Shown piece after piece: positions 14,572 through 29,665 of a stretch of 64,000 nucleotides of DNA. The DNA is taken from positions 1 through 64,000 of IMG/VR virus record IMGVR_UViG_3300005096_000005; one strand, 5' to 3'. Origin of the DNA: a virus. Position 1 is the stretch's first letter, and each line of letters begins with the position of its first letter. The notes under the pieces are model-generated. The model made no database searches. It saw only the letters and a program-made list of their open reading frames with translations, and was not told the DNA's origin. The translations under genes and the position numbers were made by a program.

Positions 14572-14605
14572 AGGGGGTTGACAGTTGCAACCCTCTGTGT
14601 ATAAT
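14572..14605 (+). promoter_or_regulatory. sigma70-type promoter with overlapping inverted repeat
   Basis: TTGACA (14578-83), 16-nt spacer, TATAAT (14600-05); AGGGGGTTG-N7-CAACCCTCT palindrome over the -35. Confidence 0.75.
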
Positions 14606-14655
14606 AATATGCAGATAGCCGATCAGGCGTGCATAGAAAAGAGAGGTGAAGCACA

Positions 14656-14856
14656 ATGTCAGGAACAAGAATAATTGTAAGAATGGAGCGGGAAACCAAA
14701 GAGCTCACTGTGAATCTCCCAACGGACTTCACTGACGAGGGTCTCAGGGAGATCATCGCCTCGGAACTTAATTGCGACACCGGTCGGCTGCAGCCTCTTA
14801 TCATCGAGCGAACACCGAATGGTATCACTCTTCGCGAGGAGGCACCGTTCGGATAA
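14656..14856 (+). CDS. Small ubiquitin-like protein candidate (66 aa, C-terminal ...APFG)
   Basis: GAGGTG SD; beta-beta-alpha-beta-beta pattern; free C-terminal Gly; ThiF/E1 gene in same region. Confidence 0.6.
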   Translation: MSGTRIIVRMERETKELTVNLPTDFTDEGLREIIASELNCDTGRLQPLIIERTPNGITLREEAPFG

Positions 14857-14863
14857 GCATAAC

Positions 14864-14944
14864 GGGTTGGCGCAGGGCGGCGCGAGTTTTCAGGGAAACC
14901 AGGGACACCTGAAGACTATCCGGGATCACGACCCGGGCAACCCA
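14864..14944 (+). ncRNA. tRNA-like RNA with extended anticodon arm, no canonical anticodon
   Basis: GGGTTG/CAACCC terminal stem; GCGC/GCGC D-like stem; 10-bp AGTTTTCAGG/CCTGAAGACT; CCGGG-7nt-CCCGG T-like arm. Confidence 0.55.
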
Positions 14945-14950
14945 CTTTCT

Positions 14951-15103
14951 GTCGCACACACGCAGTAAGCGTACAAACATTGGAGTTAGCTCAAGTGGTT
15001 GAGCATCAGCCTATTAAGCTGAAGGTTGCTGGTTCGAGCCCAGCACCCCAAACCAGTCCCGGGGGACATAAAACACCCATCCGCTTACTACACCAGGTGC
15101 GGC
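14951..15103 (+). ncRNA. Module RNA 1: hairpin module clamped around a complete tRNA
   Basis: GTCGCAC/GTGCGGC and AGTAAGCG/CGCTTACT pair across the tRNA; ACCAG/ACAC loop; GCGTACAAAC. Confidence 0.75.
14980..15055 (+). tRNA. tRNA with anticodon ATT (nominally Asn), encoded CCA
   Basis: TTGGAGT/ACCCCAA; TCAGC-CT ATT AA-GCTGA; TTCGAGC; A73; CCA. Confidence 0.75.
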
Positions 15104-15109
15104 ACACAC

Positions 15110-15262
15110 GCCCGCGTAGCTCAGCTGGCTAGAGCACCTCATAGTTTTCTTAGCTTTGAGCACCAGGTACGGTAAATCTCCGGAGACATCGTACATACGC
15201 CCCAGGCTTACAAACTTACCCTTAGGAGGGGGCGGTCGCAGGTTCGAATCCTGTCGCGGGCA
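15110..15262 (+). ncRNA. Module RNA 2: tRNA-like, module inserted in 5' strand of anticodon stem (residual anticodon TAG)
   Basis: GCCCGCG/CGCGGGC; GCTC/GAGC; module 15143-15216; CT TAG GA GGGGG; T arm GCAGG-TTCGAAT-CCTGT. Confidence 0.8.
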
Positions 15263-15270
15263 CTTAACAT

Positions 15271-15344
15271 TGCGAGGTAGAGCAGCAGGTCAGCTCGGAT
15301 GTCTCATAAGCATCAGGTCACGGGTTCGAATCCCGTCCTCGCAA
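15271..15344 (+). tRNA. tRNA-Met (CAT), initiator-like D arm
   Basis: TGCGAGG/CCTCGCA; GAGC/GCTC; GATGT-CT CAT AA-GCATC. Confidence 0.85.
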
Positions 15345-15433
15345 TAGAAACATCGGCAGTTAAAGGGAGGAAGAAAAGACCCGGAGACTGTGAACCTTGA
15401 TAAGTATATACCAGTCCAGTAATTGCTTTTTAT

Positions 15434-15586
15434 GGGCGTACATACACTGTTGGCTTACAAACCTACGTGGGTTCGAATCCCACTGTCTCCTCCATGGTTT
15501 CGACCCGGAGACATGGCCGAGCGGCTCAAGGCACTTGAATGCGGATCAAGCAATGTTTATTACAGCCAGCTCTACCAGGTACGCCC
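15434..15586 (+). ncRNA. Module RNA 3: circularly permuted tRNA-like RNA (anticodon GCG), YrlA-like topology
   Basis: Termini GGGCGTAC/GTACGCCC; T arm + TGTCTCC-T-CCA precede GGAGACA-D arm-anticodon arm. Confidence 0.8.
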
Positions 15587-15661
15587 CTTTGATGATAATA
15601 TCCCTACCATCCCGGATTGAAACGGATGGAGCCATCGCAGACGGCATGTAGTCTGCCATAT

Positions 15662-15813
15662 GTCCTCGTAGCTCAGCTGGAAGAGCGCTTAGTTGTAGTT
15701 TTGCTTACAGCACCAGGTATGGCGAATCTCCGGAGACGTCGTATAGAAGCTGGAAGCATACAAACATTCTCAATTGGTGAGAGAGGTCGGAGGTTCGAAT
15801 CCTCCCGAGGACG
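15662..15813 (+). ncRNA. Module RNA 4: tRNA-like, module at D-arm/anticodon-arm junction
   Basis: GTCCTCG/CGAGGAC; module ~15692-15765; TTCTC-AATTGGT-GAGAG; GGAGG-TTCGAAT-CCTCC. Confidence 0.8.
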
Positions 15814-15884
15814 TTTTCGAAGTGGTGTAGGTGAACCTAACTGCACAGAAGTCCTGTGTTGACAGAAGCCGCACCACTTCACAC

Positions 15885-16018
15885 GGACGAGGTAACTTCG
15901 TAGCTTGTTACACCCGGTACACTTCGGTGTACATACGTTAGAAGCTTACAAACCTGCGGGAAGGTTCCCGCATCAGCACTTAAAGCTGAAGTTTCCGGTT
16001 CAATTCCGGCCTCGTCCA
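15885..16018 (+). ncRNA. Module RNA 5: tRNA-like, module in D-arm region, loop ACTTAAA
   Basis: GGACGAGG/CCTCGTCC; module 15902-15953; TGCGGGAA/TTCCCGCA hairpin; TCAGC/GCTGA arm; CCGG-TTCAATT-CCGG. Confidence 0.75.
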
Positions 16019-16066
16019 CTCTCGTATATGCATTAGGTCCCGAGTACGACCATAAACTACTTATAT

Positions 16067-16201
16067 GCCCAGGAGCCTCGTGGGAGGCCACTGTTTACAG
16101 CTTGGTGCCCCTGATACGGTATCCGTATACCAGCAGGAAGCTTACAAACAACCGCAGTCTTCGGACGTGCGGCACGGAAAGTTCGACTCTTTCCCTGGGC
16201 G
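16067..16201 (+). ncRNA. Module RNA 6: tRNA-like, module replaces anticodon arm, long variable arm
   Basis: GCCCAGG/CCTGGGC; GCCTC/GAGGC; module 16092-16150; CCGCA..TTCG..TGCGG; GAAAG-TTCGACT-CTTTC. Confidence 0.75.
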
Positions 16202-16321
16202 CTTCAGATACAGGACAACTTTGCTGGCATAGTTGTACACAGAAGGTTCACGAGGGAGGGCCAGCGACCTCCGTGATTAAAGTACAGGTGAAACATACTG
16301 TCGCCTGAAGTATCTGCACCT

Positions 16322-16459
16322 GGGGAGGTAGCTCAGTTTAGTTTACACGCTTGATGCGCCCGGTACAGTTTACTGTACACCAGCTTTAGGCTTACAAACA
16401 CTGGTAAGAGCAAAAGTCTTGAAAACTTTGTGTCGTTGGTTCAATTCCAACCCTCCCCA
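16322..16459 (+). ncRNA. Module RNA 7: tRNA-like, module inserted in D loop (anticodon TGA, short variable loop)
   Basis: GGGGAGG/CCTCCCC; GCTC..module 16341-16399..GAGC; AAAGT-CT TGA AA-ACTTT; GTTGG-TTCAATT-CCAAC. Confidence 0.8.
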
Positions 16460-16603
16460 CTTTGCCAACTATCTGCAATAGTAATATTGCAATGTCAACT
16501 CGCTGACATAAAATAGGAGTGTGAACCAGGTACCTGGGGATCAGTCGCAGAGTAGGGCTAAGGCGCGGCACTGCGACGCACAAGTAAAAAGTGGGCGCCA
16601 GAC

Positions 16604-16676
16604 GGGTCCTTAGTTCAGCCGGGAGAACAGCAGCTTTGCAAGCTGAAGGTCCGGGGTTCAAGTCCCCGAGGATCCA
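16604..16676 (+). tRNA. tRNA-Ala (TGC)
   Basis: Cloverleaf, anticodon TGC, G3:U70. Confidence 0.9.
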
Positions 16677-16697
16677 TTCAATCAGTTTTAGCACTAT

Positions 16698-16773
16698 GGA
16701 CTATTAGGCTCAGCGGTAGAGCGCAGGTCCCGACGGGAAGCCTAAGTCCCTGGTTCGAATCCAGGATAGTCCA
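16698..16773 (+). ncRNA. tRNA-like RNA with aberrant anticodon arm
   Basis: GGACTAT/ATAGTCC, normal D and T arms; anticodon arm AGGTCCCGACGGGAAGCCT lacks a 7-nt loop. Confidence 0.65.
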
Positions 16774-16950
16774 CTATGGAAGTACTACCGTTCGCCATTG
16801 ATGAGGAAGGAGAGCCGATTGAACCTCGCAGGAGGCCGCCCAGGTCGTGGGTTAAGCCACCAATAACCCTCCGCAGAAGGGTTCCGAAATCGCCTCATGT
16901 CCCATCAGATGAGGCGCAACGAGTCCCTGAGGTAGCAAGGAGAGTTCAAG

Positions 16951-17241
16951 ATGCCAGTTCCCGAAATGACAACGGAAGTGCATTACGGCGTAGTGAAGAC
17001 ATGTAACCCTACAGTTGAGAAGTTAAGACATGCAGAAAGCCTGTGCTATAACTGCGAGAGGTTTAAGCCTGGCAAAGATCACAATTGTCCGGCTGCGAAT
17101 GACTTCTTCCAGGCAGGACAGAAGTGGCAGATATCCGTTATCATAACGCAATGTCCTACCGATATGTTCATCCCTGCAGAAGAGAACTATTATATTCTGC
17201 AAGAACAATCAGGAGACCCCTTTGGCCTGGATACGCCATAG
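16951..17241 (+). CDS. Cys-rich hypothetical protein
   Basis: AGGAG SD; CYNC...C...CP. Confidence 0.5.
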   Translation: MPVPEMTTEVHYGVVKTCNPTVEKLRHAESLCYNCERFKPGKDHNCPAANDFFQAGQKWQISVIITQCPTDMFIPAEENYYILQEQSGDPFGLDTP

Positions 17242-17244
17242 TAT

Positions 17245-17317
17245 AGGTCGGTAGCTCAACTGGTAGAGCGTCAGTCTCCAAAACTGAAGGTCGCAGGTTC
17301 GATTCCTGTCCGGCCTG
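17245..17317 (+). tRNA. tRNA-Trp (CCA)
   Basis: Cloverleaf, TCAGT-CT CCA AA-ACTGA, G73. Confidence 0.92.
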
Positions 17318-17610
17318 TTCCGTACTATGAGAGACAGCGATGTCAAAGTGGTGTGAAGCTCTTGAGATATATAGAAAGTCTCATCCTGACCTGAAACCGA
17401 TGGAAAGAGACCCGGGTTGCAATGTCTTTGCACCCAATGAATACACACGAGAACATGGCGTTACACAATGCCGAGGCTGTAGATGTTTTCTATATGCTCA
17501 CGGGAAACTTGATCCGTATAGTCAATTGATACATGATGTGATAAAGAAAAAGAGGGAGGATCCTGATTGGTCCTGGTGACTCAGGGGGTCCGGAAGATAA
17601 TGTAACAATT

Positions 17611-17685
17611 CGGGATGTAGGCCAGTCAGGTTAAGCCGCGCGGTTTGGGACCACGAGACCCTCAGTTCGAATCTGAGCATCCCGA
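17611..17685 (+). tRNA. tRNA-Pro (TGG)
   Basis: CGGGATG/CATCCCG, TT TGG GA. Confidence 0.88.
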
Positions 17686-17710
17686 CTTTAGGACAAGCAA
17701 ACTATCTATA

Positions 17711-17783
17711 GGGGTGGAAGCTCAATTGGACGAGCACCGGACTGTCGATTCGAAGGTTGCGGGTTCGAACCCCGTACACCCCG
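17711..17783 (+). tRNA. tRNA-Asp (GTC)
   Basis: Cloverleaf, CT GTC GA, G73. Confidence 0.85.
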
Positions 17784-18249
17784 TATGCCAACACTGACAT
17801 GTAAATGTGGAGCCCATATTACATGGAGAAAGAAACTCCGCTATAAGAGATGTCCGGCCTGCGCCAGACTCATCAATGCCTCCGTTGAAGACGAAGGAGT
17901 TATCGATCTTGTTGAGCTGCCAGATGGAACGTTCGGTTGTCCGGAGAGTGTGTGGGACGAACGCAAAAAGATTCTGGAGCTAATCAAAGAAGGAGAACAT
18001 AATGACAGACATTCTAACACTTGACATCTATGAACTGGAAGACCTTAGCATTATCTATGAAGCTCTTAAGAAAGATACGCCTCAGGGGATCAGTACATCT
18101 ACCATCACACTTTTTCGGGATCAGAAAGAACGACTTCACGTTAACATTACTTTAAAGCCAATAGATGAAGTAAAAACCGTAGCGCTCACAGTAAACATGC
18201 GAAAGGAAGGTGATGAAGATGGATGTTGACAAAGCTGAGAAGACGAGAC

Positions 18250-18322
18250 ACACGCGAAGCTCAACAGGATGAGCATCTGACTTTTAATCAGAAGGAAGTC
18301 GGTTCGAGTCCGACCGCGTGTA
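18250..18322 (+). tRNA. tRNA-Lys (TTT)
   Basis: TCTGA-CT TTT AA-TCAGA. Confidence 0.9.
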
Positions 18323-18338
18323 TTCGGAGGAAGTAATA

Positions 18339-18914
18339 ATGAGTATGGGACTGGAAGAAGCAAAAGAGTTGATGTGTAGAGCACATGAGTTGCAACTCCG
18401 AAAAGACGGAAGCCCCTTCTACACCCATCCTCTGGGTGTCCTTGATATCGCGCTTAATGAATGCCCATGGGACCCTGATGAAGAATATCAGATAGGTCTT
18501 TTGCTCCATGACATCATAGAAGATACCACCATGACAGAGAACGACCTCATCAGACACGGAGTGCCACTGAAGTCTGTTGGGTTTGTTATGCAGCTTACCA
18601 AGTACGAGAACCCAGAGCATGGGAGGTTTCAAAGGTATAGAGCAAAGCTCCTTAATTCGAGTCCTGAAGTAAGAGCTGGGAAGCTTTGTGATATGATCCA
18701 TAACTCAAGAAGCCTTTTACTTCTGCCTGATAACCTTAAAGATAAGAATACGTTTACACGTTTCATGATAGATAGATGTAACACATTCGGCAACGAACTA
18801 GCAGTCTCTCTGAACCAGTACAGAGGAATCTGGGCTACGGTGAAACTGTGGTGGCAGGTCAGCTTCGAAGAAGTTCTGGACAGACTTGAAGATGCCGGGT
18901 GGCCAAGCTGGTAA
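18339..18914 (+). CDS. HD-domain small alarmone hydrolase-like ((p)ppGpp hydrolase, SpoT/Mesh1 type)
   Basis: AHELQLRKDGSPFYTHP; LLHDIIEDT; KLCDMIHN; GGAGG SD. Confidence 0.8.
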   Translation: MSMGLEEAKELMCRAHELQLRKDGSPFYTHPLGVLDIALNECPWDPDEEYQIGLLLHDIIEDTTMTENDLIRHGVPLKSVGFVMQLTKYENPEHGRFQRYRAKLLNSSPEVRAGKLCDMIHNSRSLLLLPDNLKDKNTFTRFMIDRCNTFGNELAVSLNQYRGIWATVKLWWQVSFEEVLDRLEDAGWPSW

Positions 18915-18965
18915 GGCGCCGCACTGTTAATGCGGACAGCGCAGGTTCGAGTCCTGTCCCGGCAG
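18893..18965 (+). tRNA. tRNA-Asn (GTT)
   Basis: CCGCA-CT GTT AA-TGCGG, G73. Confidence 0.9.
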
Positions 18966-19286
18966 TACCTGAAAGGAGTTTTTCGGCATGAAAACAGAAC
19001 GAGAGGTAATTGATAAGATTCAAGCAAAGCTCAAAGAGATACACTCTCCTGACATGGAGCACATACAATTGATAGTGGATGCTACACTTGAAGTTCTGTG
19101 TGATAACCTCTGCCGTAAAGGGGACCTTGGATGTGCAAGGTGGTTCCGGGAGAAACCGGGATCATTCTTCACTTTCCAGGTGGGACCACGGGGTCTTAAT
19201 GATGGAGTTGCCACTCCTCGCCTCACTGGAGAATGGATAATCAGCCAGAATGGGCGCACAGCGTTTCGTGTCAGAGGTATAGAGTC

Positions 19287-19359
19287 GCCCTCGTAGCTCA
19301 GAGGATAGAGCTGTGGGCTACGAACCCACGAGTCGCAGGTTCGACTCCTGCCGAGGGCT
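19287..19359 (+). tRNA. tRNA-Arg (ACG)
   Basis: GTGGG-CT ACG AA-CCCAC. Confidence 0.9.
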
Positions 19360-19718
19360 TGAAAATGATAAGAACAGGAGATCAAGCATGGGGAAAGATG
19401 ACACCTTTAATGACCTCGAAGACAGTCTAAGCGAGAAGTGCAAAGAGTGCTTCGATGCGTGTGTAGACGAGTATGTAAACGGAGACTCTCCGCGCAGTCA
19501 GTGGTGTATCCTGGATGAGTGTGAATTCTACGAGGAACAAGAATGAGACGAACCGAACTGATAGCAAAACTAGTTGTCGCTGAGATGGAGCGCATGGATA
19601 GCCAATCTCTTGGAGCCATATTGCAGGAAGGATGTCGGGGCTTTGATAATATGAGCAACGAGGAACTTGTAGATGTTGCAAATGACATATATGATATGAA
19701 CATTAGACTGGAGGACAA

Positions 19719-19955
19719 ATGAAGACAGGAATATATGAACACTATAAGGGCGGGCTGTATGCAGTAATCGATACGGTCCTTAATGTAGACGAAGACGAAG
19801 CAGTAGAGTCTGTCATCTATGTCTCGTTAAATGAGGATAACTATGGACAGAAGTTTGTCCAGCGGGAGGACAGGTTCAGAGGCTCGATCTTCCCGGCGCA
19901 TACAGAGGAAAGGTTCAAGTTCATCTGCCCGCTTCCACCACAAATTGAGGTGTAA
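19719..19955 (+). CDS. DUF1653-family protein
   Basis: GIYEHYKGGLY...VIYVSL...ERF. Confidence 0.7.
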   Translation: MKTGIYEHYKGGLYAVIDTVLNVDEDEAVESVIYVSLNEDNYGQKFVQREDRFRGSIFPAHTEERFKFICPLPPQIEV

Positions 19956-19967
19956 AGACCAAAAGCT

Positions 19968-20041
19968 GCTCCCGTAGCTGAAACTGGCTATAGCGGCGCA
20001 CTTGTAATGCGTAGATATGGGTTCGATTCCCTTCGGGAGCT
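19968..20041 (+). tRNA. tRNA-Thr (TGT)
   Basis: GCGCA-CT TGT AA-TGCGT. Confidence 0.85.
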
Positions 20042-20494
20042 TTTTGTGGTACAATACCAGACTTAAAGGAGGTGTATCAGATGCGGGCGCAACTGAACTG
20101 CCCGGCCTGTAATAGTATGAGGGAACACAAAGTACTCGTCACAGGCAATGGCAGCAACATCGTAACGTGCCTCTGCTGCTTTACAACACGGAGCATAAAA
20201 GAGGCAGAGGTATGCCAGGGTAGCTCAGATAGTAAAGCTCCAGCTTCTGGCACTAAGAAAGGATAGAAGAATGAACGAAGTAGATATGGCAAGAAAGATG
20301 ATTCAGGAACTCGATGACGGTGTCGAAAACAATGACTTCGAAGTCAGCGACTGGGAGTGTGACTTTCTGGACAACCTCAGGGATCACCTGGAGACAGCAA
20401 ATCATCTGAGCGACGCTCAGTACAATAAGCTCGAAGAGATTCATAGAGCAAAGATATAAGGAGAGAACAGTATGGATATTGCAGAGATTGGATC

Positions 20495-20566
20495 GGGCGT
20501 GTAACTCAGCGGTAGAGTACGGCGCTGATAACGCCGGAGTCACTGGTTCAATTCCAGTCACGCCCA
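20495..20566 (+). tRNA. tRNA-Ile (GAT)
   Basis: CGGCG-CT GAT AA-CGCCG. Confidence 0.9.
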
Positions 20567-20592
20567 TTAGTACAAAGAAAGGAAGTAACAGT

Positions 20593-20796
20593 ATGGCAGA
20601 GAGCGGTACAGTAAAATGGTTCGATGGAGCAAAAGGTTTCGGCTTTATCGAACGCAGCGATGGCGAGGATGTCTTTGTGCATTACTCAGACATTCAGGCT
20701 CAGGGTTATAAGACTCTCGACGAAGGTCAACGAGTCTCCTTCGACATTGCAGAAGGACCCAAAGGGGACAAGGCTGTCAACGTCATTCCGATGTAA
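20593..20796 (+). CDS. csp: Cold-shock protein
   Basis: [15 protein letters not shown]...DVFVHYS...GQRVSF RNP1/RNP2. Confidence 0.95.
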
Positions 20797-20802
20797 GCAG
20801 CC

Positions 20803-20877
20803 GGGCCTTTAGCTCAGCCCGGTCAGAGCAGCGGACTCATAATCCGTAGGTCGGAGGTTCAAATCCTTCAAGGCCCA
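20803..20877 (+). tRNA. tRNA-CAT (Ile2-like or elongator Met)
   Basis: GGGCCTT/AAGGCCC; GCGGA-CT CAT AA-TCCGT. Confidence 0.85.
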
Positions 20878-21433
20878 CTATGTTATTCACAATAGGTAAA
20901 GAGAAACCCTACGACGAACTCCTTGTCAGACACGGAAGGTTAAGGAAGGGCATAGGCGGCTTTGCGTTCGTTAACAAAGCAGAAGCCCTCGAAGAGGCCA
21001 GGCGTCTGACTGCAGGAAAGAGTAAGATAGTGGGTCTTCCAAAAGGAGCGTACTCAGTATACCTGATGGAGGGTAACGTGGGCGATGTCATACCGCGCAA
21101 ACATACCGGGTCCGACTCTACATATCCAAGCCTAAAGTTCCCACGGAGGATAATCCGGAAGGTCAAGTGATTGGAAAGACTCCAATAAGTAATAGTCTTA
21201 TTGGAAGTTCAGTATCAAACTACCATTAAGGGTGGAGATAGAAGTGACATACAGTTGTTCAGATACAGTAATGGACCTGGCGAATAAAGTGTGCGGCCGG
21301 TGCCCATGCCTACAAGAATGCTCAGAACGGGAAAGCTCGGAAACACTGACAGCATGCATTATTGAATTGCTTGAGGATCATGTTGGGCTTCCGATAGAAT
21401 GGCCAGATACAAAAGAGATTCCCGAGACATAAA

Positions 21434-21506
21434 GCCCCGGTAGCTCAGCGGATAGAGCAGCCGGCTTCTACCCGGCGTGTCGGAGGTTCGATTCCTTCTC
21501 GGGGTA
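21434..21506 (+). tRNA. tRNA-Arg (TCT)
   Basis: GCCGG-CT TCT AC-CCGGC. Confidence 0.88.
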
Positions 21507-21688
21507 TGGAGGAACTATTATGACAAATACTTGTGCAAGAGGTATCCAGGACGGAGAGGGGCCGAACGCTCCTATCAGTTGCAGTGCCCTGACAGAGAAA
21601 GTTGACGATCAGAACATCCGGAAACCCTGTCCTTTCAGCAGAGATGGCAGAATCCAGCGGATGTGTGGCATGTATGAAAAGAAGTAAC

Positions 21689-21761
21689 GCGGTGGTAGCT
21701 CAATTGGCAGAGCGCTGGCCTTCCAAGCCAGAGGTTGCGGGTTCGAGGCCCGTCAACCGCT
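21689..21761 (+). tRNA. tRNA-Gly (TCC)
   Basis: CTGGC-CT TCC AA-GCCAG, U73. Confidence 0.9.
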
Positions 21762-21763
21762 AC

Positions 21764-22004
21764 GACATGTGGAAGTAGCTTAGAGCCAAACAACACGTGG
21801 ATGGCCCCTCGTTGTAAGACTGCAGTGTGCTACTCATATCACATGATACGGGATGGACCTGCAGCGTTCGAGTATGAAGCGTGGCTCCGCACAGGACAAA
21901 GGCTCAGTAAGACCTCGGGACGTCTCGAGTGTAATCGGAACACAGGGCCACCGATACCGAGGGAAGTTACCCAAACTACAACGGGCAACGTGCGGCCTCA
22001 TGTC
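21764..22004 (+). ncRNA. Unidentified structured RNA between two tRNA-Gly genes
   Basis: Terminal stem GACATGTGG/CCTCATGTC plus nested stems and possible pseudoknots. Confidence 0.55.
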
Positions 22005-22007
22005 AAA

Positions 22008-22080
22008 GCGGCGATAGCTCAACCGGTAGAGCACCAGTCTGCCAGTCTGGAGGCCGTGGGTTCGACTCCCACTCGTCGCT
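22008..22080 (+). tRNA. tRNA-Gly (GCC)
   Basis: Cloverleaf, CT GCC AG, U73. Confidence 0.88.
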
Positions 22081-22232
22081 CTATATTGAAGGGTCTGGTA
22101 ATATGAGTATCCTTATAAAGATATGTATCCTGTTATTCTGGATTCTGTCCTCGATTGCTATTTGGCGAGCGGTTGACAGCGTTACGTCCATACAAGAAGA
22201 GCAGGACACTTCAGATGACGCGAAACTTTAAT

Positions 22233-22304
22233 AGCCTCGTAGCCAAGAGGTAAGGCGTCGGGCTTTGGACTCGATATTCGCTGGTTCGAATCCAGCCGGG
22301 GCTT
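22233..22304 (+). tRNA. tRNA-Gln (TTG)
   Basis: TCGGG-CT TTG GA-CTCGA. Confidence 0.88.
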
Positions 22305-22662
22305 TGGAGAGAAACATGAGAGTCGACATTAAGGAGATACTAAGAGATCCTATCAAGAAACGTAAGCTATTCACAGGAGTAATCAGGTTTCTTCACTGGA
22401 TAGGGTCTGATTGTAGAGGCGAAATTACACAGGAGCAGGCCGAGGATATCTACGACCTGACGTTCGACGAGAAAGTCCCTGTCGACTTTCCTGCTCCTGT
22501 AGAATGGACAGCAAACACAGACATGAAGTTTACATCACACGAGCGACAACGTATAATAATGTCCTACAAATATAACAGGCCATGGGTATCCCATAGGCCA
22601 GATATAAAGGAGGTGAACCCAGATGGGAAGTGACTCCGGATCATCAGGAAGTTCGACAAGCA

Positions 22663-22752
22663 GGAGAGGCCAGCCGATAGATGGCGACGGCAGCGGTCTT
22701 GAAAACCGAAGGTCCTTAACAGGACGTGTGGGTTCGACCCCCACCCTCTCCG
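22663..22752 (+). tRNA. tRNA-Ser (TGA)
   Basis: CT TGA AA; long variable arm GTCCT-TAAC-AGGAC; G73. Confidence 0.88.
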
Positions 22753-22896
22753 CTACTTGTGAACATGACTGGGACTTCTGGCATGATATCTCTTTCGTAA
22801 CCCAGACAGACGGAAACATGGGCGTATGCGTAAAGATGATGTGCAAGAAGTGTGGCGTTACCAAACATACTAACCCATTGTGTGTTCACGCATAAA

Positions 22897-22983
22897 GGAA
22901 GGTTGACAGAGAGGTTAATCGTGCCTGATTGCTAATCAGTGCGTCGTGAAAGCGACACGGAGGTTCGAATCCTTCACCTTCCG
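22897..22983 (+). tRNA. tRNA-Ser (GCT)
   Basis: TT GCT AA; long variable arm; G73. Confidence 0.88.
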
Positions 22984-23029
22984 TTACCTACTACCAGGGA
23001 CGATAGGATCGTCCAGAAAGAGGTGACAC

Positions 23030-24553
23030 ATGACAGACATGTCAAGAGAAGAAAGAGATTACAGGACACAGATGCTTAATGCAGTCCTGGTTACACCCCA
23101 CAGAGATCGCAAAGGTACCAAGAAAGACACAAGTGCTCACCAGCATACCCGTGAGACATTACTCAGTTACCACAACGAACTCCTGCAGAATGACCCCCTT
23201 TTCTATGGGAAACTCGGATACTGGTATATGCAGAATGGAAGCATTCGGGATCACATGGAAGCCTTTGTAGGCAACATGTTCCTGAGTCCGGTTCCCGAGC
23301 ATCGTGACGCAGCTCACGTGATCGTATCGAAAGGAGATCAGTTTGCTCCTTACCAAATTCCCCGGCTTATTGACTTCGTCGAGAAGGATCAGGGTCGAAA
23401 CATGCCCCGTTGCATGAAAAAGGCCATCCATCGTTGGATCGATCAACTCGAATCAGACACAGCCAGGTTTGATGGTGCCGCATTACATGCTCGCAAGCAT
23501 CTGAAGTACGTTGCCAGAAAAACACGGAGCCACCTGTCTGAAAGGTCCAGGGGTATTCTCTTCACTAAAGAATATCCTGAAGGTTCAGTGTTCGAAGCAC
23601 TGAGACGCATGTCTAATGAGGACATGGAACCGCAGGAAGTCGCAGAGACTATCGTCAAGCATAAGATTCCGCTGAGGATAGCAGGTGCGTATATGAAAGC
23701 GGTTACACCTACTGTCCTCTGCGCAGTAGTTCATAATATGTCGTCCCAGGAACTCATCAACAACGTGGGCTGGCTGCAGGATCGCGGAGCCCTGGACAAT
23801 GAAGACCTCAAAGCTCTGGTCCAGGAAAAGCTGAAGAAGGCAAGGAAAGACAAAAACGTGGCCGCCATGAAAACAAGGACGGCTATCAGTACAGGTCGTG
23901 TCCATGACGAGAGTATCATGGAACAACTCCAGGAAGTAGGAGACGAACAGCTCAAAGCCAAAGGACGCATCCGCAGAGATACACTCCTGTCAATCGACAA
24001 GTCAGGATCAATGTACAATTCAATTCGCCTGGGAGTGGAGCTCGGGTCACTTATTGCCCAGTCACTGGAAGATGGCGCAGCGCTTTATGCGTTCGCGTTC
24101 GACACAGCTCCGTACGAGCTGGGCAACCCGGGGCCAAGAATGTCTGACTGGGAGAAGGCTCTCAAGTTCATCAAAGCAGGCGGAGGGACAGCATGCGGTG
24201 CTCCCACGACAGTCCTTACCAGGAAGGATATTATGGTAGAGAACATCGTCATCATATCTGATGGTGGTGACGGTTGCTCTCCGTTCTTCGACAACGCCTA
24301 CACAGAATACGTGAACAAGACCGGAGCAAAGCCTCTTGTCACGTTCATTGCTATCGATACTGCAGGCAATATACCGGGTAGACAGACACGTCTCGGGAAT
24401 GAGATCGAAGATCTGAAGATTGAACACAGAATCATCGACTTCAAAGGAGACAAGTACAGTCTTCCAGACGTCATTACCATCCTGTCCAGGCCGTCAATGT
24501 TTGATCTCGTTATGGAGATCATGGCTATCGAGCTGCCCAAACGTGCGGCATAA
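23030..24553 (+). CDS. Ro60/TROVE-like protein (helical N-terminal domain + C-terminal vWA)
   Basis: DPLFYGKLGYWY...IRD; MSSQELINNVGWL..RG; IDKSGSM MIDAS, GGTAC, ISDG; size and architecture like Ro60. Confidence 0.75.
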   Translation: MTDMSREERDYRTQMLNAVLVTPHRDRKGTKKDTSAHQHTRETLLSYHNELLQNDPLFYGKLGYWYMQNGSIRDHMEAFVGNMFLSPVPEHRDAAHVIVSKGDQFAPYQIPRLIDFVEKDQGRNMPRCMKKAIHRWIDQLESDTARFDGAALHARKHLKYVARKTRSHLSERSRGILFTKEYPEGSVFEALRRMSNEDMEPQEVAETIVKHKIPLRIAGAYMKAVTPTVLCAVVHNMSSQELINNVGWLQDRGALDNEDLKALVQEKLKKARKDKNVAAMKTRTAISTGRVHDESIMEQLQEVGDEQLKAKGRIRRDTLLSIDKSGSMYNSIRLGVELGSLIAQSLEDGAALYAFAFDTAPYELGNPGPRMSDWEKALKFIKAGGGTACGAPTTVLTRKDIMVENIVIISDGGDGCSPFFDNAYTEYVNKTGAKPLVTFIAIDTAGNIPGRQTRLGNEIEDLKIEHRIIDFKGDKYSLPDVITILSRPSMFDLVMEIMAIELPKRAA

Positions 24554-24993
24554 TGGCAAAGTGTCATATCTGTAATAACGAAGTACCTGGTGCCAGACAG
24601 GGAACTCGCTACTGCGAAGCCTGTAAGGCTCAGCATGCTATTGATATACTGGTGGCCCGGTCTGCGGACCGGGCTGCCTTACTTTACACGAATGGGACGC
24701 TCGACAGGATGCAGCGTCTCGGAGATCTTCTGATTACAGGTCAGAGTATGTCCGAGGCGGCGCGTCGCTTAAACATATCCAGAACACGTCTCTATGACTT
24801 CGTTGACACATATAATCTCACAGACTACGTGCACGTATGTCAGGCTATGGGAAAAACATCAAACCTCGATGTATCAAAAGAGATGGATATTACTCGTAGG
24901 GAGCTCCTCGCTTCAGCAATCAAGTGTGCGATTGAAGGTGACATGAATGGATATAGGAAGCCTGATGAGCAAGATGAAGGCGTTGGACCATGA
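24553..24993 (+). CDS. Zn-finger + HTH DNA-binding protein
   Basis: CHIC...YCEAC; SMSEAARRLNISRTRLY HTH. Confidence 0.65.
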   Translation: MAKCHICNNEVPGARQGTRYCEACKAQHAIDILVARSADRAALLYTNGTLDRMQRLGDLLITGQSMSEAARRLNISRTRLYDFVDTYNLTDYVHVCQAMGKTSNLDVSKEMDITRRELLASAIKCAIEGDMNGYRKPDEQDEGVGP

Positions 24994-25843
24994 TTTACTA
25001 ACCACAGAGTTCATTGCCCCATACATTGGAGGACCTATCATCACGCGTATCGCCGGCATCGTCTATACATTCAGCCCCTATAGAATGAGCAGAAACAGGA
25101 ATGCATATCCGTGGCCAAAAACAGACCATGGAATATTCCGGTGGAAACCTATAGATACCAAGCGAGCTATCGCGCAACCGACAGGCCGGCTGGCATACCA
25201 TGAGTATCGTAAGTTTCTTGAACACTTCCCTATTCTCAAGGTAATCGTGATCCGTCGCCATGAAGGACAGTGGCTTACAGTTCCATGGAATGCTGAAGAA
25301 GTCTATACACGTTTTGGTATCGGTGGAGTACTTCCTGTTTACCTGTGCGATAGAGTAGAGCGCTTTGATGTAGTTAACGTGGCGTTTACTCCGGAACTGA
25401 TCTATATGGACCGGGCGAGACTGAGCGCTGGCTGGTTGCGGGAACTGAAAAGAACATGCTCCGGAGAACAACTTCCCGCCGACCCATACAACGTCCCGGG
25501 ACTTCCTCCGGAAGGCAGAACAGCTCTTGACTATCTGCTGAAGCGAGATGAGGAGTTGAAGATAGCTCTTGAAGAGCAAAGAATAAGAACAGCTCTTGGC
25601 CACATGGATGCTGAACTTGTATCCTACATGGATCAGGGGCCAAATCAGCTCGTCGTTAGATGGAAGTACCGTGGCATTGAGTACCGTACAGTAGTACAAA
25701 AGGACAACCTGGAAGTTGTATCCGCAGGTATATGCCTGAGTGGTCAGGACCGTAAGTTTGATCTAACGTCAATCGTCTCTGTTATGCGGGAACGTCAGGA
25801 TAGATGGGGCGATGATCACTTTAATCAACACGATCTTTATTGA
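24947..25843 (+). CDS. Conserved hypothetical protein with C-terminal SAGICLSG motif (candidate E2-like)
   Basis: ORF track; GICL motif after beta-meander-like segment; adjacent to Ro-like gene. Confidence 0.55.
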   Translation: MDIGSLMSKMKALDHDLLTTEFIAPYIGGPIITRIAGIVYTFSPYRMSRNRNAYPWPKTDHGIFRWKPIDTKRAIAQPTGRLAYHEYRKFLEHFPILKVIVIRRHEGQWLTVPWNAEEVYTRFGIGGVLPVYLCDRVERFDVVNVAFTPELIYMDRARLSAGWLRELKRTCSGEQLPADPYNVPGLPPEGRTALDYLLKRDEELKIALEEQRIRTALGHMDAELVSYMDQGPNQLVVRWKYRGIEYRTVVQKDNLEVVSAGICLSGQDRKFDLTSIVSVMRERQDRWGDDHFNQHDLY

Positions 25844-25851
25844 GGAAACGT

Positions 25852-27024
25852 ATGGACCATAAACCGATTCATTACGAGAGAGTGATAAGAGATGCTGCGA
25901 TATTGGCTCCTGAGCTGGTGGAGGCAGGGATAAAACCTTTCTCATGGATGGACCCTGAAGTTAAAAGGGAATGCGAACGCTTTGGCGATGACCTCACATA
26001 CTTCAGGTACACTTACAAAGTAATTCAGCCGTTCGTAAGCAGGAACGCCCACATTGTGGCTACAATCATGAATACATTGTCCAAGTCACCAGGACTTGAT
26101 GAAGGCTGGATGATCACCCATCTAATGATGGAATATCATACCTATATGTTCAATAGGTTTGGCAGGCAGGTGTTCAGCATCATGCCCACACTCGCAAGGA
26201 TGCTTGTTGACACTGACCTCGATGTCGACACAGACCTTTTGAAGATGCCGCACCGGAGTATATATCTGACATTCCCGCCCGACCTGTTCAGGATATGGAA
26301 TCAGATGTCCGGGGTTCATAATGTAGAAGGTATCTATGTGTGTGAGGATCCCTGGGATATCGAAAAGGAATTTAAGAACCTGCGGACTGACACGAGTGTT
26401 GCAGAAAAGCTAAACGTAGAACAGAACCGCGTACTGAGGGTTCTACTGGTGGGATCCACCAATAATGATAACGCTCTGGATGATGCTCTGTTCCACTTCA
26501 GGGTAGATATTGGTCCGGGAACTCTGGGTCAGTACATTGAGAAAGTCACCGAGCTGGCTATGGAAATCATATCATCCTCACAGTTTGATAGTGTAAGAGG
26601 TAACAAGTCTCTATTAGAGATACAGCACATCTTCAGGTTTGTTGCAAACGTGCTACTGTATATAAGCTCTTCTCATCCTGACGTCACAAAGCAGTTTCCT
26701 GATAAGTTCAGGAAGGAGATGGAAAAGTGTAAACGTCTCGGAGGAGGAAAGTCCAGAAAAGGGAAGCGTGCAGCAGAACGTGCCCGGAGATATACCAGTA
26801 TCCCACGTATTGTTCTCGGGGCAAACATACCAAAAGATCATTACCAGCCAGGAACGGGTTCGAAAGTGTCCAAACGTTTCAAAGTAAAAGGACACTGGAG
26901 AACATACACAAGCATGCGTTATACCGAGGAAGTACGCGGTAAAACTGTATGGATTAAACCTTTCTATAAGGGACCCGAAATGGCCGACGAGCTTGACAGG
27001 CGATACAAGGTTGGTTCAGAATAG
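25852..27024 (+). CDS. Phage hypothetical protein (C-terminal VKGHWR...WIKPFYKG motif)
   Basis: ORF track; GAGG SD before ATG 25852. Confidence 0.65.
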   Translation: MDHKPIHYERVIRDAAILAPELVEAGIKPFSWMDPEVKRECERFGDDLTYFRYTYKVIQPFVSRNAHIVATIMNTLSKSPGLDEGWMITHLMMEYHTYMFNRFGRQVFSIMPTLARMLVDTDLDVDTDLLKMPHRSIYLTFPPDLFRIWNQMSGVHNVEGIYVCEDPWDIEKEFKNLRTDTSVAEKLNVEQNRVLRVLLVGSTNNDNALDDALFHFRVDIGPGTLGQYIEKVTELAMEIISSSQFDSVRGNKSLLEIQHIFRFVANVLLYISSSHPDVTKQFPDKFRKEMEKCKRLGGGKSRKGKRAAERARRYTSIPRIVLGANIPKDHYQPGTGSKVSKRFKVKGHWRTYTSMRYTEEVRGKTVWIKPFYKGPEMADELDRRYKVGSE

Positions 27025-27051
27025 TAGTCCACAATAAATAAAGGAGGCCAC

Positions 27052-27771
27052 ATGGACAACCAAGACAAGAGTATGGCAGAGGGATCCTTTGCCGAAGTAG
27101 AAGAAGTCAATCCGAAGGAAGTAGAAGGTGAAGTTCTAAGAATCGACGACATTGTGCAAACCCCCGAAGATGTTCAGCCGAATGACACAGCGGAAGGGCC
27201 GCTCACCGCGGAAGACATCCCCAAAACTGAAGCACAGAAACAGGCGGAAGAACACCTCAGGAAACTGGAAGAGGGCTTCAAAGCCCAGCTCGCAAAGATC
27301 GAAGAGGACCTGAATGCCAAGGTTTCAGCCGGTCAGATGCTACCCGAAGCAAGGGACATCATCCTGCGTGCCGAAAGGCTCAAGCTGGACAAAGACCTTT
27401 TGAATCGCGCAGGTGTCGTTCAGATCAGTTACAATATGGTCTGGAACATGATCCAGACCTTCTTCGAATTCAGTACACTGCTCGAAGGTGGTCGGGTTAA
27501 AGCTCTTCGCATGAACAATAACCCGATACAGGGAACCATCGATGTTCTGTTCTGTCACGGAGATCTGGAGCCTCTGGCAGAAGGCGAGACCCCGCCGTAC
27601 GTACAGATGCCACAGCTTGCATTCAACGACTTCCAGCTCCTCATGGCGATTCGGAAAAAGGATCCGAAGCTTATGCAGAATACATTGCGTGCCGCTGGAT
27701 GGATGAACATAAACGTCACCGACCACACTCCGAAGATCATCGTCCCAGGGAACCAGGGAGGCGGCCAGTAA
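27052..27771 (+). CDS. Hypothetical protein
   Basis: AAGGAGG SD; ORF track. Confidence 0.65.
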   Translation: MDNQDKSMAEGSFAEVEEVNPKEVEGEVLRIDDIVQTPEDVQPNDTAEGPLTAEDIPKTEAQKQAEEHLRKLEEGFKAQLAKIEEDLNAKVSAGQMLPEARDIILRAERLKLDKDLLNRAGVVQISYNMVWNMIQTFFEFSTLLEGGRVKALRMNNNPIQGTIDVLFCHGDLEPLAEGETPPYVQMPQLAFNDFQLLMAIRKKDPKLMQNTLRAAGWMNINVTDHTPKIIVPGNQGGGQ

Positions 27772-28904
27772 TGGGACACGAAGTCAAATGTGTAGTTACG
27801 GCCCTGGATGGCGTAAAGTTCCCAATGTATCCGATCAGTTCGAGGGACGCATTCAAGCTCAATAGAGACAGAAGCGAAGAAGAAATCCTTGCAGATCCAA
27901 GGATGGATCCGGTAACATTCAGATACATGACCCCCGAGGAAAAGATCGAACGGGCAGGCCGTATTTGCTACAATAGCGAAGACAGGATCTGCCTGGGCAG
28001 TGCGGAGAAGTTCGTCAGAGGTGTCATGAAACGTGGTCATGAATCTGTGATCGAACATGAAGGTATCTGCGTGGAAGTAGAAACCAACCTCATTACACTT
28101 CTTCGGTTTCTGACTGAATGTCCTGTACACTCATTCATTCAGGTAACTATAACCGGGATATCACAGATGGGACTGGTTGCAGCAATCCTGTCTGGAAACT
28201 TCCGGACGTGGAGAGATCACTTCCGCTGGGATCCAAAGAATCCAATTGCTTTTCAAGCAATGCAGCTTATCAGTGAGAAGACCCCACTGTTTTCGGAGTC
28301 AATTCCAGAAACAGCCTGCGGTGGTCCGGATGAGACTAAAGGAGCTGCTACCGTTACGTTCATAGGATTCACCTCCCAGATCGCGCTGGAAACACGTTTC
28401 AGTACAGAAACCAGAATGAAGCACGGTACCTTCACGGTAGTAGTCGATGGCGTCTCCAGAGCAATGACACACCAGTTCGTACGTCATCGCCCGGTCGCCT
28501 TCAGCCAACGTTCACAACGCTATTGTGGCGAGTCTGACTTCAACTACGTTGTCCCACCAGATGCAATGGGAGAACTGAAACTCAAGAACGCCGATCGTGT
28601 TGCAGCAGTAATGGATAGAGAACCTGATACGTTCACGTTCAGTGACTCTATGCAACTGATGGGACACTTTTACAGCAAACTGCAGGGGGCTGGTCTCAAG
28701 AATGAGGACGCCCGTTTTGTGCTTCCCAACGCATGCGAGACCAACATTGTAGCTACGGCAACGTTGAATCAGTGGCTGCACATGATCAACCTGCGGACAT
28801 CAAAACACGCTCAGTGGGAGATCCGGGAGGCGCACAGACAAATATGCCACTTGCTTAAAGAGCATTGTCCCGGGCTTCCCTTTGACTCGATAGAGTTTGA
28901 GTAA
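27771..28904 (+). CDS. thyX: FAD-dependent thymidylate synthase with internal duplication
   Basis: IERAGRICY..GHESVIEH; SRAMTHQFVRHRPVAFSQRSQRY; EDARFVLP; AQWEIR; GGAGG SD. Confidence 0.92.
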   Translation: MGHEVKCVVTALDGVKFPMYPISSRDAFKLNRDRSEEEILADPRMDPVTFRYMTPEEKIERAGRICYNSEDRICLGSAEKFVRGVMKRGHESVIEHEGICVEVETNLITLLRFLTECPVHSFIQVTITGISQMGLVAAILSGNFRTWRDHFRWDPKNPIAFQAMQLISEKTPLFSESIPETACGGPDETKGAATVTFIGFTSQIALETRFSTETRMKHGTFTVVVDGVSRAMTHQFVRHRPVAFSQRSQRYCGESDFNYVVPPDAMGELKLKNADRVAAVMDREPDTFTFSDSMQLMGHFYSKLQGAGLKNEDARFVLPNACETNIVATATLNQWLHMINLRTSKHAQWEIREAHRQICHLLKEHCPGLPFDSIEFE

Positions 28905-28992
28905 AGAGTTGTAAGCGCATATAATTAAGTACATGTCTGGACAAGCCGGGGAGGTTACAACCATAATCTCCTCGGCTTCCTCCTCTTAGGAG
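28897..28992 (+). promoter_or_regulatory. sigma70-type promoter and structured 5' leader of thiF-like gene
   Basis: TTGAGT-17-TATAAT (28897-28925); 15-bp hairpin 28943-28978; CTCCT-CTT-AGGAG hairpin over SD. Confidence 0.6.
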
Positions 28993-28998
28993 ACTGCA

Positions 28999-29640
28999 AT
29001 GTTTAACCATGAACGAGACTATCGCGGTACCGGAGCGGAAGAACGTATCAGCCGCCAGCGTATCGTAGTGATGGGTTGTGGAGCACTGGGTTCTGGAATC
29101 GCTATAACTCTTTGCCGTATGGGGTTCAGGTTTATCGACCTTGTAGACAATGGCAGAGTAGAAGATCAGAACCTTGGCACACAACAATATGATATGCGAG
29201 ACGTAGGAGCAATGAAGGTACACGCTCTCTGGCAAAAGCTATATGATATAGTCGGCGATGGCCCGGGAGAACTCAATGTCTTTACACAGGACATTACGAA
29301 GAAGCGCCTCAAAGTATCAGACCATACGGTTATCATCATAGACTGCTTTGATAATGCCGCAGCCAGAAGTACTATCGAAGACCGTTACTCTATGAATCCG
29401 ATCATCCACGCAGGAATGGGCGATGGACTGTCCGAAGTAACCTGGCATCCGAGGTATAAAGTACCTACTGATCCGCCAGGGACAGAGACAGACCAGTGTG
29501 AGTACCCGCTGTCAGCTACCCTGGTGCAGATGACGGTAGGTATGGTATGTGAGGCTATAACTCGACGTGTTATTGAAGGAAAGGAGTATGATCTCAGGTT
29601 TACCCTGGGCGACTTTAATATCTCTGCACAACAGTATTGA
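28999..29640 (+). CDS. ThiF/MoeB/E1-family adenylyltransferase
   Basis: GCGALGS; DNGRVEDQNLGTQ; DVGAMK; IIDCFDN; DQCEYP candidate catalytic Cys. Confidence 0.88.
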   Translation: MFNHERDYRGTGAEERISRQRIVVMGCGALGSGIAITLCRMGFRFIDLVDNGRVEDQNLGTQQYDMRDVGAMKVHALWQKLYDIVGDGPGELNVFTQDITKKRLKVSDHTVIIIDCFDNAAARSTIEDRYSMNPIIHAGMGDGLSEVTWHPRYKVPTDPPGTETDQCEYPLSATLVQMTVGMVCEAITRRVIEGKEYDLRFTLGDFNISAQQY

Positions 29641-29665
29641 CCACTATAGAATGTCCGCGTATAAT
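29637..29665 (+). promoter_or_regulatory. sigma70-type promoter
   Basis: TTGACC-17-TATAAT; inverted repeat TGTCCGC/GCGGACA flanks the -10. Confidence 0.65.

Follow-up and report, generated by a model that had tools for sequence, protein, structure and literature searches.

A divergent Ro60-like protein, a small ubiquitin-like protein (Ubl), a minimal ThiF-type E1 enzyme, an OB-fold protein with a conserved cysteine (the Cys protein) and a series of RNAs sharing one structural element, which we call the clamp, are encoded together in a 64,000-nucleotide stretch of DNA from a giant phage (the window), corresponding to positions 1-64,000 of IMG/VR virus record IMGVR_UViG_3300005096_000005, a record of 170 kb estimated to be ~78% complete. 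In phages and in several bacterial phyla, the four proteins and the clamp RNA family are co-inherited, and this widespread gene set has apparently not been described so far. We lean towards reading the cassette as the phage copy of a conserved module in which a Ro60-like ribonucleoprotein is coupled to a minimal Ubl cascade, in line with an original prediction made from the DNA letters and their translated reading frames, which had proposed that a ubiquitin-like conjugation machinery works here with a Ro60-like protein and an array of tRNA-mimic RNAs.

The Ro60-like protein has hundreds of homologues with 36-54% identity in cyanobacteria, Planctomycetota, Armatimonadota, Chloroflexota and others, as well as in phage contigs. 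A locus search with the single Ro60-like sequence returned nothing; alignment-based scans succeeded and supplied the loci compared here, 52 viral and 80 bacterial ones, the latter drawn from a confirmed total of at least 573. Clustering of the open reading frames (ORFs) around the Ro60-like gene gave four recurrent families, namely the Ro60-like family itself (c0), the Cys protein (c1), the E1 enzyme (c2) and the Ubl (c3). Within the locus flanks, the Cys protein was found in 38 bacterial and 17 viral loci, the E1 enzyme in 34 and 16, and the Ubl in 35 and 10. Other jumbo phages (L120, L122, L124, L125 and L126) carry the cassette in the tight order Ubl, RNAs, Ro60-like protein, Cys protein, (JAB), E1 enzyme, and the cassette of phage relatives often includes this JAB/JAMM peptidase gene, while bacterial metagenome-assembled genomes assigned to Chthonomonadaceae, Acidobacteriota and Clostridia have the order c0-(c22)-c1-c2. 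Among 121 evenly sampled cyanobacterial genomes, with the E1 family scored at E ≤ 1e-40, the four families shared one and the same set of 10 genomes, and 0 of the 111 others had any of them. All five genomes without a Cys protein gene beside the Ro60-like gene (5/5) encode it elsewhere as a single copy. The original prediction had supposed that similar sets of small-protein, vWA, GICLSG and ThiF genes occur together in some cyanobacteria and planctomycetes; the tight operons in phages and bacteria and the identical cyanobacterial profiles bear out such a co-occurrence. Three checks that could have refuted the original prediction, on the co-occurrence of the genes, on the fold of the small protein and on the tie of the RNA module to the Ro60-like gene, left it standing, and we regard it as partly supported. 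The closest relative of the phage studied here is represented by loci L035/L036, with a Ro60-like protein that is 54% identical. That relative also has an intein-bearing ribonucleotide reductase, and in L035 (11237-12397), L036 and L037 an AcrVA2-like gene (PF26125) lies between the Ro60-like block and the ThiF gene.

The RNAs of the window were recognised by the motif GC[TGA]TACAAAC, which occurs in seven copies between 14969 and 16390, all on the plus strand; six of the seven fit GCWTACAAAC, for which 0.19 copies would be expected. Minimum free energy (MFE) folds and inspection define the clamp as a helix P2 (GC-N7/N7-GC), a small internal loop, a helix P1 and the junction TTACAAAC. Seven tRNA-like RNAs with one common hairpin module had been predicted; the module is indeed shared by all seven, and takes the form of a closed hairpin in just five of them (RNAs E2, E4, E5, E6 and E7), where it is grafted into a tRNA-shaped body at a site that varies from RNA to RNA (Table 1). 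RNAs E1 and E3 have the topology found in bacteria, with the two clamp halves split around a payload, and the RNA ends would therefore form P1. The payload of RNA E1 is a tRNA-like body (14980-15055) with the anticodon loop CUAUUAA and an encoded CCA, plus a hairpin, whereas that of RNA E3 runs in the order T arm, 3' acceptor strand, CCA, 5' acceptor strand, D arm and anticodon arm, with the acceptor end of the permuted tRNA closed by a hairpin. Since several of the phage RNAs lack an anticodon arm or carry unnatural anticodons (AUU, UUA), they are unlikely to decode. Rfam searches with the window and Calothrix RNAs, at gathering thresholds and at E ≤ 1, returned tRNA-clan and chance matches only. 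An exact-pattern scan of IMG/VR with the window module gave 25 loci, which are consistent with chance because each holds a single match and has no tRNA gene within ~2.5 kb. An eighth copy of GCTTACAAAC lies in the phage genome outside the window (G000:C1:72663-72672).

Two of these RNAs have further peculiarities. A tRNA-Asn-like bait with the CUAUUAA loop is found in RNA E1 of the window, in the closest relative phage (L036:~127-190) and in Calothrix (L033:8204-8275); its anticodon is unnatural, with A34 in place of G/Q34, and this bait may mimic a QUN-family tRNA in a form that cannot be cleaved or modified. RNA E5 combines an 8-bp acceptor stem, a 4-bp T stem and a 6-bp D stem with the anticodon loop ACUUAAA (UUA), a shape that resembles tRNA-Sec or allo-tRNA with an ochre-reading anticodon.

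In relatives, the RNA module follows the Ro60-like gene, as had been expected of it. Across the 80 bacterial loci, the motif GC[ATG]TACANAC has 264 copies in the orientation of the Ro60-like gene versus 8 in the opposite one; it is present in 72 of these loci, mostly no more than 3 kb upstream of the Ro60-like gene. A 23-nt pattern of the 5' half was found in 10/10 of the protein-positive cyanobacterial genomes and in 2/111 of the others (single matches), and its backward control in none. The bacterial RNAs share the layout P1 5' strand-CCYRAC-N7GC-TTACAYAC-payload-GC N7-ACTT-P1 3' strand, their clamps are closed by the RNA ends, and the junction reads TTACA(A/T)AC across phages and bacteria. 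When 249 unique clamp instances were placed using nothing but their conserved loops, the outer pairs of P1 were 78-88% paired versus 44-54% with partners shuffled, with up to six pair types, and the middle of P2 followed the same trend. The 17 hairpin-type phage modules, five of them from the window, gave 76.9% paired cells versus 64.4% and a covariation score of 0.379 versus 0.179; 0 of 500 shuffles reached either value, and slid controls went down to 35-50%. At the position of CCYRAC in other lineages, the phage of the window and its closest relative both have a loop shortened to 4 nt (AYAC/AGAC), which hints, across two lineages only, at co-variation between RNA and protein.

What the clamp holds differs widely between instances. 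A T-loop is present in 156 of the 249 payloads, and ARAGORN recognised 76 tRNAs among them with many anticodons, including the unnatural AUU, AAA, ACA, AUA, UUA and CUA. Short-word BLAST against one E. coli rRNA operon gave 32 high-scoring segment pairs for the payloads versus 2 for the reversed payloads used as control. Among the payloads of bacterial relatives, five copy the sarcin-ricin loop of E. coli 23S rRNA (2653-2665), four of them together with 1062-1088 in the GTPase-associated centre; another site, 1909-1941 (H69-H71), is matched by 12 payloads. Searches with blastn for two bacterial payloads in all E. coli genomes found none at E ≤ 0.01. Because the payloads copy the exact RNA sites that are hit by ribotoxins and anticodon nucleases, they suggest that translation is surrounded by a decoy-based layer of defence and counter-defence. 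The loci with rRNA-copy payloads also contain paralogues of L7/L12 and EF-Ts; besides such paralogues, cyanobacterial loci carry an RNA ligase (PF09414), Tpt1/KptA (PF01885), a GNAT protein and an AAA ATPase. Another recurrent payload class, of the form ...GGTGCG...CGCTGCAAGCCTGA..ATAGCAGGC..., was seen at L039:7211, L046:4057, L040:7802, L067:2483, L085:1339 and L104:3411.

The 507-, 298- and 213-aa ORFs lie where the original prediction had placed them, as does the 66-aa ORF with a C-terminal glycine (...APFG), which is preceded, as had also been claimed, by a promoter matching the consensus perfectly. For the 507-aa protein, phmmer matched Ro60 of Thermus phage phiLo in PDB (9l5y/9kop) at 4.8e-6 over residues 45-387, and the PHROGs family found is annotated as "RNA-binding protein." A profile built from 34 homologues matched Ro60 structures only (phage, human, Deinococcus and Xenopus), with the alignment falling on the vWA domain; the residues of the MIDAS motif (IDKSGSM), D323, S325, S327, T387 and D411, are invariant in all 34, and some homologues match PF25045, "Ro60 vWA," at 1.9e-7. 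The ThiF-type E1 enzyme has the invariant residues GxGxxG (G26, G28 and G31), D50, K73, D118, R123 and C167. Its best NCBIfam matches are ThiS adenylyltransferases, all under the cut-offs, and it has weak sequence matches to Cap2 and to the ThiF-type PDB entry 9egb. The original prediction had given this gene a promoter of its own: the ThiF assignment stands, while the promoter matches, at 28897 and 28938, reach 10/12 each. In phage and Chloroflexota relatives, family c11 is a JAMM peptidase in which E..HTH..S..D is invariant.

The claim that the small protein is a beta-grasp protein agrees with its AlphaFold2 (AF2) model, which has a predicted local distance difference test (pLDDT) score of 88 and the order beta-beta-alpha-beta-beta. 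The top Foldseek matches of this model are nearly all Ubl or PB1 domains, but weak (E ≥ 0.04), and the best match by VIA was MoaD (Z 6.9, root-mean-square deviation 2.6, 65 residues aligned); next came further MoaD proteins, SAMP1, ISG15 and a bacterial Ubl (8tyz_B). As all Z values are below 8, we regard the support for a Ubl fold as moderate. In the family, R60 and G66 are invariant and the penultimate residue is Tyr or Phe; the glycine is terminal in most members, and a few phage members extend 1-4 residues past it. The GICL-motif protein announced for the window is a protein of 298 aa that contains SAGICLSG, and P25, G261, C263, L264 and D268 are invariant in its family. Its AF2 model (pLDDT 87) predicts an OB fold at residues 82-160, with Z 7.4 to eIF5A and then IF1, S17 and proteasomal OB rings, followed by a C-terminal part made of a long helix, four strands, the Cys263 loop and a helix. 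This C-terminal layout and motif presumably recall a UBC core (G-x-ICL-D/S), a likeness confirmed by no search. A suspected relationship of the Cys protein to ARPP was rejected (hhalign probability 0.1%), and a complex prediction of the Cys protein with the Ubl, run without controls, gave no answer (score 0.00).

Taken as a Ro60-like ribonucleoprotein coupled to a Ubl cascade, the module would work as follows. By analogy with Ro60 on the conserved helix of Y RNAs, the Ro60-like protein would dock on the invariant clamp and would thereby present the payloads as decoys or baits to factors binding or attacking the RNAs of translation. The ThiF-type E1 enzyme would adenylate Gly66 of the Ubl, which could then pass via a cysteine (C167 of the E1 enzyme, Cys263 of the OB-fold protein or both) to a protein that the particle holds or contains; the JAMM peptidase encoded in most phage relatives would trim or remove the Ubl. 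For the phage, the likely purpose would be counter-defence, with translation and the large tRNA supply kept safe from anticodon nucleases of the host or from effectors of a related kind. A more specific proposal, made in the original prediction with tRNA-binding host proteins as the supposed targets and considered unlikely by us, is RNA-programmed, E3-like tagging, whereby a factor that engages a decoy RNA would covalently receive the Ubl from the E1 enzyme and the OB-fold/Cys protein on the Ro60-like ring. A tRNA would serve as the decoy or, for bacteria, either H69 or the sarcin-ricin loop combined with the GTPase centre; the target could be a toxin, a nuclease or a modifying enzyme, and the payload library would form an exchangeable set of specificities, used by bacteria for defence and by phages for counter-defence.

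Several observations weigh against a Ro60-Ubl module. The TROVE/vWA identity originally assigned to the 507-aa protein stood as regards its Ro60 kinship and its invariant vWA MIDAS, but the TROVE family of Pfam did not match it. The clamp lacks the known Ro-binding motif of bacterial Y RNAs, GNCGAAN0-1G (PMC4201824): among the 7 window RNAs a single one has it, in an apical loop, and among the 249 clamp instances there are 5. In the Cys protein there is no HPN motif, and no E2 appears among its fold and profile matches, which are dominated by the OB domain; Pfam, NCBIfam, PHROGs, a PDB profile search and a protein atlas yielded nothing usable for this protein. Neither PF14464 nor the family profile found a JAB/JAMM gene in the 78%-complete phage record. 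The parts of the cassette are scattered here across 15 kb, with 18 ordinary tRNA genes and several unrelated genes (the HTH protein, ThyX and others) interspersed. Whatever goes beyond co-inheritance, folds, payload types and the structure of the clamp is inferred. Finally, the Ubl ends in a single glycine instead of Gly-Gly, and its best structural match is a sulfur carrier.

This last point bears on the main rival, in which the E1 enzyme makes a thiocarboxylate on the Ubl as a sulfur carrier, as in ThiS/ThiF, MoaD/MoeB, TtuB/TtuC and Urm1/Uba4, and the sulfur travels on through the cysteine of the OB-fold protein to tRNA or to those tRNA-like RNAs that the Ro60-like protein holds. Sulfur-carrier Ubls come with JAMM peptidases (CysO/Mec+), and TtuB and Urm1 serve tRNA thiolation. 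Besides the MoaD match and the ThiS adenylyltransferases that head the NCBIfam matches of the E1 enzyme, albeit under cut-offs, the position of the cassette amid tRNA and tRNA-like genes and the suitability of an OB fold for RNA binding are consistent with such a relay. However, the neighbour clustering gave no PP-loop thiouridylase, rhodanese or cysteine desulfurase, in the course of which no search was aimed at these; the Ubl family ends in [YF]G rather than GG; the payloads include rRNA mimics as well as tRNAs; and GICLSG resembles, on our unconfirmed assumption, the active sites of E2 enzymes. We consider a sulfur relay unlikely, though it is the strongest of the rivals.

Somewhat less probable still is a classical Ro60-type scaffold for RNA repair or quality control, with clamp RNAs that tether the Ro60-like ring to a ligase, Tpt1 and exonucleases and a Ubl that merely regulates. 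There are precedents for such a scaffold in Ro60-Y RNA-PNPase and in rsr-yrlBA-rtcBA (PMC4201824, PMC12135203), phage TROVE proteins have been described as RNA-repair platforms with a tRNA-like partner (Iyer et al. 2021, PMC7824862), and genes for the PF09414 ligase and PF01885 Tpt1/KptA are present in a subset of cyanobacterial loci. The ligase is nonetheless confined to 8/80 bacterial loci (and one viral locus) and Tpt1 to 6/80, versus profiles of the Ubl, the Cys protein and the E1 enzyme that are identical to that of the Ro60-like protein; PF09414 was not found in the 78%-complete phage record; and repair leaves unexplained why payloads copy intact functional rRNA sites.

That the modules are introns or mobile inserts in real tRNA genes, comparable to archaeal bulge-helix-bulge (BHB) introns and permuted tRNA genes, excised and ligated into working tRNAs including suppressors, is very improbable. 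The inserts do sit at several cloverleaf positions, one gene is permuted, RNA E7 minus its insert would have a normal D loop and the basal GTTT/AAAC helix carries a TAC bulge of 3 nt. By inspection, however, this bulge is distal on the 3' strand, the mirror image of a BHB, in which two 3-nt bulges on opposite strands flank a 4-bp helix; excision would leave RNAs E2, E4 and E6 without an anticodon arm; the internal loop is conserved and the helices covary like a binding site; the 78%-complete record yielded no PF09414 ligase; and in bacteria the clamp terminates stand-alone RNAs whose payloads are rRNA-like or very short, on which evidence BHB splicing was abandoned.

Returning to a Ro60-like ribonucleoprotein with a Ubl cascade, the nearest known ribonucleoprotein systems are YrlA/YrlB, the Deinococcus Yrn1-PNPase system and the Ro60 of Thermus phage phiLo with Yrl1/2 (PMC4201824, PMC12135203). 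As in Ro60/Y RNA systems, a TROVE/vWA-type protein is encoded beside several small RNAs, and the trait of Y RNA and YrlA type that had been anticipated, a conserved stem with an internal loop joined to a tRNA-like domain beside a Ro60-type gene, is present; the bacterial RNAs and RNAs E1 and E3 resemble YrlA in having their conserved stem closed by the RNA ends. Unlike in those systems, the divergence of the protein puts it out of reach of Pfam TROVE, GNCGAA is missing from the clamp and the Rfam matches are limited to tRNA-clan models, the payloads form a diversified library that includes copies of rRNA sites, the phage clamp is a hairpin grafted into tRNA bodies whose acceptor ends are free, and the Ro60-like protein is strictly co-inherited with the Ubl, the E1 enzyme and the Cys protein. 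With the E2-less or minimal prokaryotic Ubl systems, namely archaeal SAMP/UbaA/JAMM, Thermus TtuB/TtuC/JAMM and CysO/MoeZ/Mec+, the cassette shares a small beta-grasp protein with a C-terminal glycine, a ThiF-type E1 enzyme of ~210 aa and, in relatives, a JAMM peptidase, and with TtuB a tie to tRNA biology. It differs from them in its single terminal glycine, in having no thiouridylase among the clustered neighbours (again, no aimed search), in the extra OB-fold/Cys protein, and in an obligatory Ro60-like protein with bait RNAs.

Phage tRNAs replace those cut by host anticodon nucleases, for example against PARIS or PrrC. The tRNA-shaped RNAs described here likewise stand beside a large tRNA array and are plausibly aimed at tRNA-targeting defences, but unlike ordinary phage tRNA arrays they carry a putative protein-docking clamp and would hardly serve in decoding. 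Ubl conjugation in phage defence is known from Bil (BilABCD), CBASS Cap2/Cap3 and Bub operons (bioRxiv 10.1101/2023.09.26.559546; 10.1101/2024.11.21.623953). The logic of E1 enzyme, cysteine carrier, JAB and Ubl genes and the patchy, conflict-type loci are similar, whereas the cassette has no recognisable UBC E2 domain, its E1 enzyme is not fused to an E2, it includes RNAs and a Ro60-like protein, and phages carry it too. Full-text searches led to papers on Ro60/Y RNA, on Bil/Bub/CBASS and to jumbo-phage surveys, a scope outside which Burroughs and Aravind 2016, on RNA repair systems, falls; none of them couples a Ro60-like protein to a Ubl cascade, and in an Asgard-virus preprint the genes for Ro60 and ThiF are listed for a single virus, unconnected. 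New here are the identical phyletic profiles, the permutation of the clamp between bacteria and phage, and the rRNA-site payloads with L12 and EF-Ts neighbours. The functional coupling, if true, would join two separate fields, Ro60/Y RNA surveillance and ubiquitin-like modification, in bacteria and viruses. Ro60 biology gains a tractable model with a clear set of genetic partners, and the phage RNAs show how, in nature, RNA modules are displayed on tRNA scaffolds.

Table 1. Features of the cassette and its surroundings in the window, and rRNA-copy payloads in relatives
Feature	Position	Strand	Details
Sigma-70-type promoter	14578..14605	+	TTGACA-16-TATAAT, 12/12; precedes Ubl gene and RNA array
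Beta-grasp Ubl, 66 aa, ending in Gly66 (c3)	14656..14856	+	BLAST member of a 45-member family ending RPEAV[YF]G
RNA E1	14951..15106	+	Clamp halves 14951-14978 (5') and 15083-15102 (3'), paired in MFE fold
RNA E2	15110..15262	+	Clamp hairpin 15153-15215 at anticodon-arm position; small V-arm-like hairpin next
RNA E3	15434..15590	+	Circularly permuted tRNA-like RNA; RNA ends close clamp (GGGCGTAC/GTACGCCC)
RNA E4	15662..15813	+	Clamp hairpin 15703-15765 at anticodon-arm position; Rfam tRNA 42.8 bits, 92-nt insertion
RNA E5	15885..16018	+	Clamp hairpin 15903-15953 between acceptor stem and D arm
RNA E6	16067..16201	+	Clamp hairpin 16100-16149 at anticodon-arm position; long V-arm hairpin
RNA E7	16322..16459	+	Clamp hairpin 16349-16399 within D loop; anticodon loop CUUGAAA; Rfam partial tRNA 28.8 bits
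Ordinary tRNA gene array (context)	16604..22983	+	ARAGORN and Rfam; between clamp RNAs and Ro60-like gene
Divergent Ro60-like TROVE/vWA protein, 507 aa (c0)	23030..24553	+	PDB Ro60 matches; phrog_850; MIDAS DKSGS
Helix-turn-helix (HTH) protein, 146 aa	24553..24993	+	HTH_28 9.5e-5, weak, under Pfam cut-off
OB-fold protein, 298 aa (c1)	24947..25843	+	Cys263 in SAGICLSGxDRxFDL; candidate thioester carrier
Minimal ThiF-type E1 enzyme, 213 aa (c2)	28999..29640	+	PF00899, 6.9e-22
Sarcin-ricin and GTPase-centre payloads	L039:1406, L045:444, L045:13086, L106:10312		L040:4249 is sarcin-ricin only
H69-H71 payloads	L046:2842, L074:5914, L082:5041, others

As for the surroundings of the cassette, megablast of the region against phage GenBank matched tRNA fragments only, and we therefore assign the phage to an uncultivated lineage. 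ARAGORN and Rfam place a tRNA array on one strand at ~14.9-23.0 kb of the window, and 3' of it are nucleotide-metabolism genes, including ThyX and ribonucleotide reductase. By gene order, a 149-aa ORF in the closest relative phage (L035-L037) takes the place of the 146-aa HTH gene. The ThyX gene (27699-28904) has an N-terminal extension of ~235 aa without a family match, and the best-scoring of its two matched Thy1 stretches covers residues 236-391. One tRNA, at 16698-16773, was called by Rfam (46.8 bits) and missed by ARAGORN, and has an oversized anticodon loop in the alignment. Further sigma-70 promoters, each 11/12, lie within the tRNA array at 22529-22557, ~470 bp upstream of the Ro60-like gene, and at 29637-29665, directly 3' of the ThiF gene.

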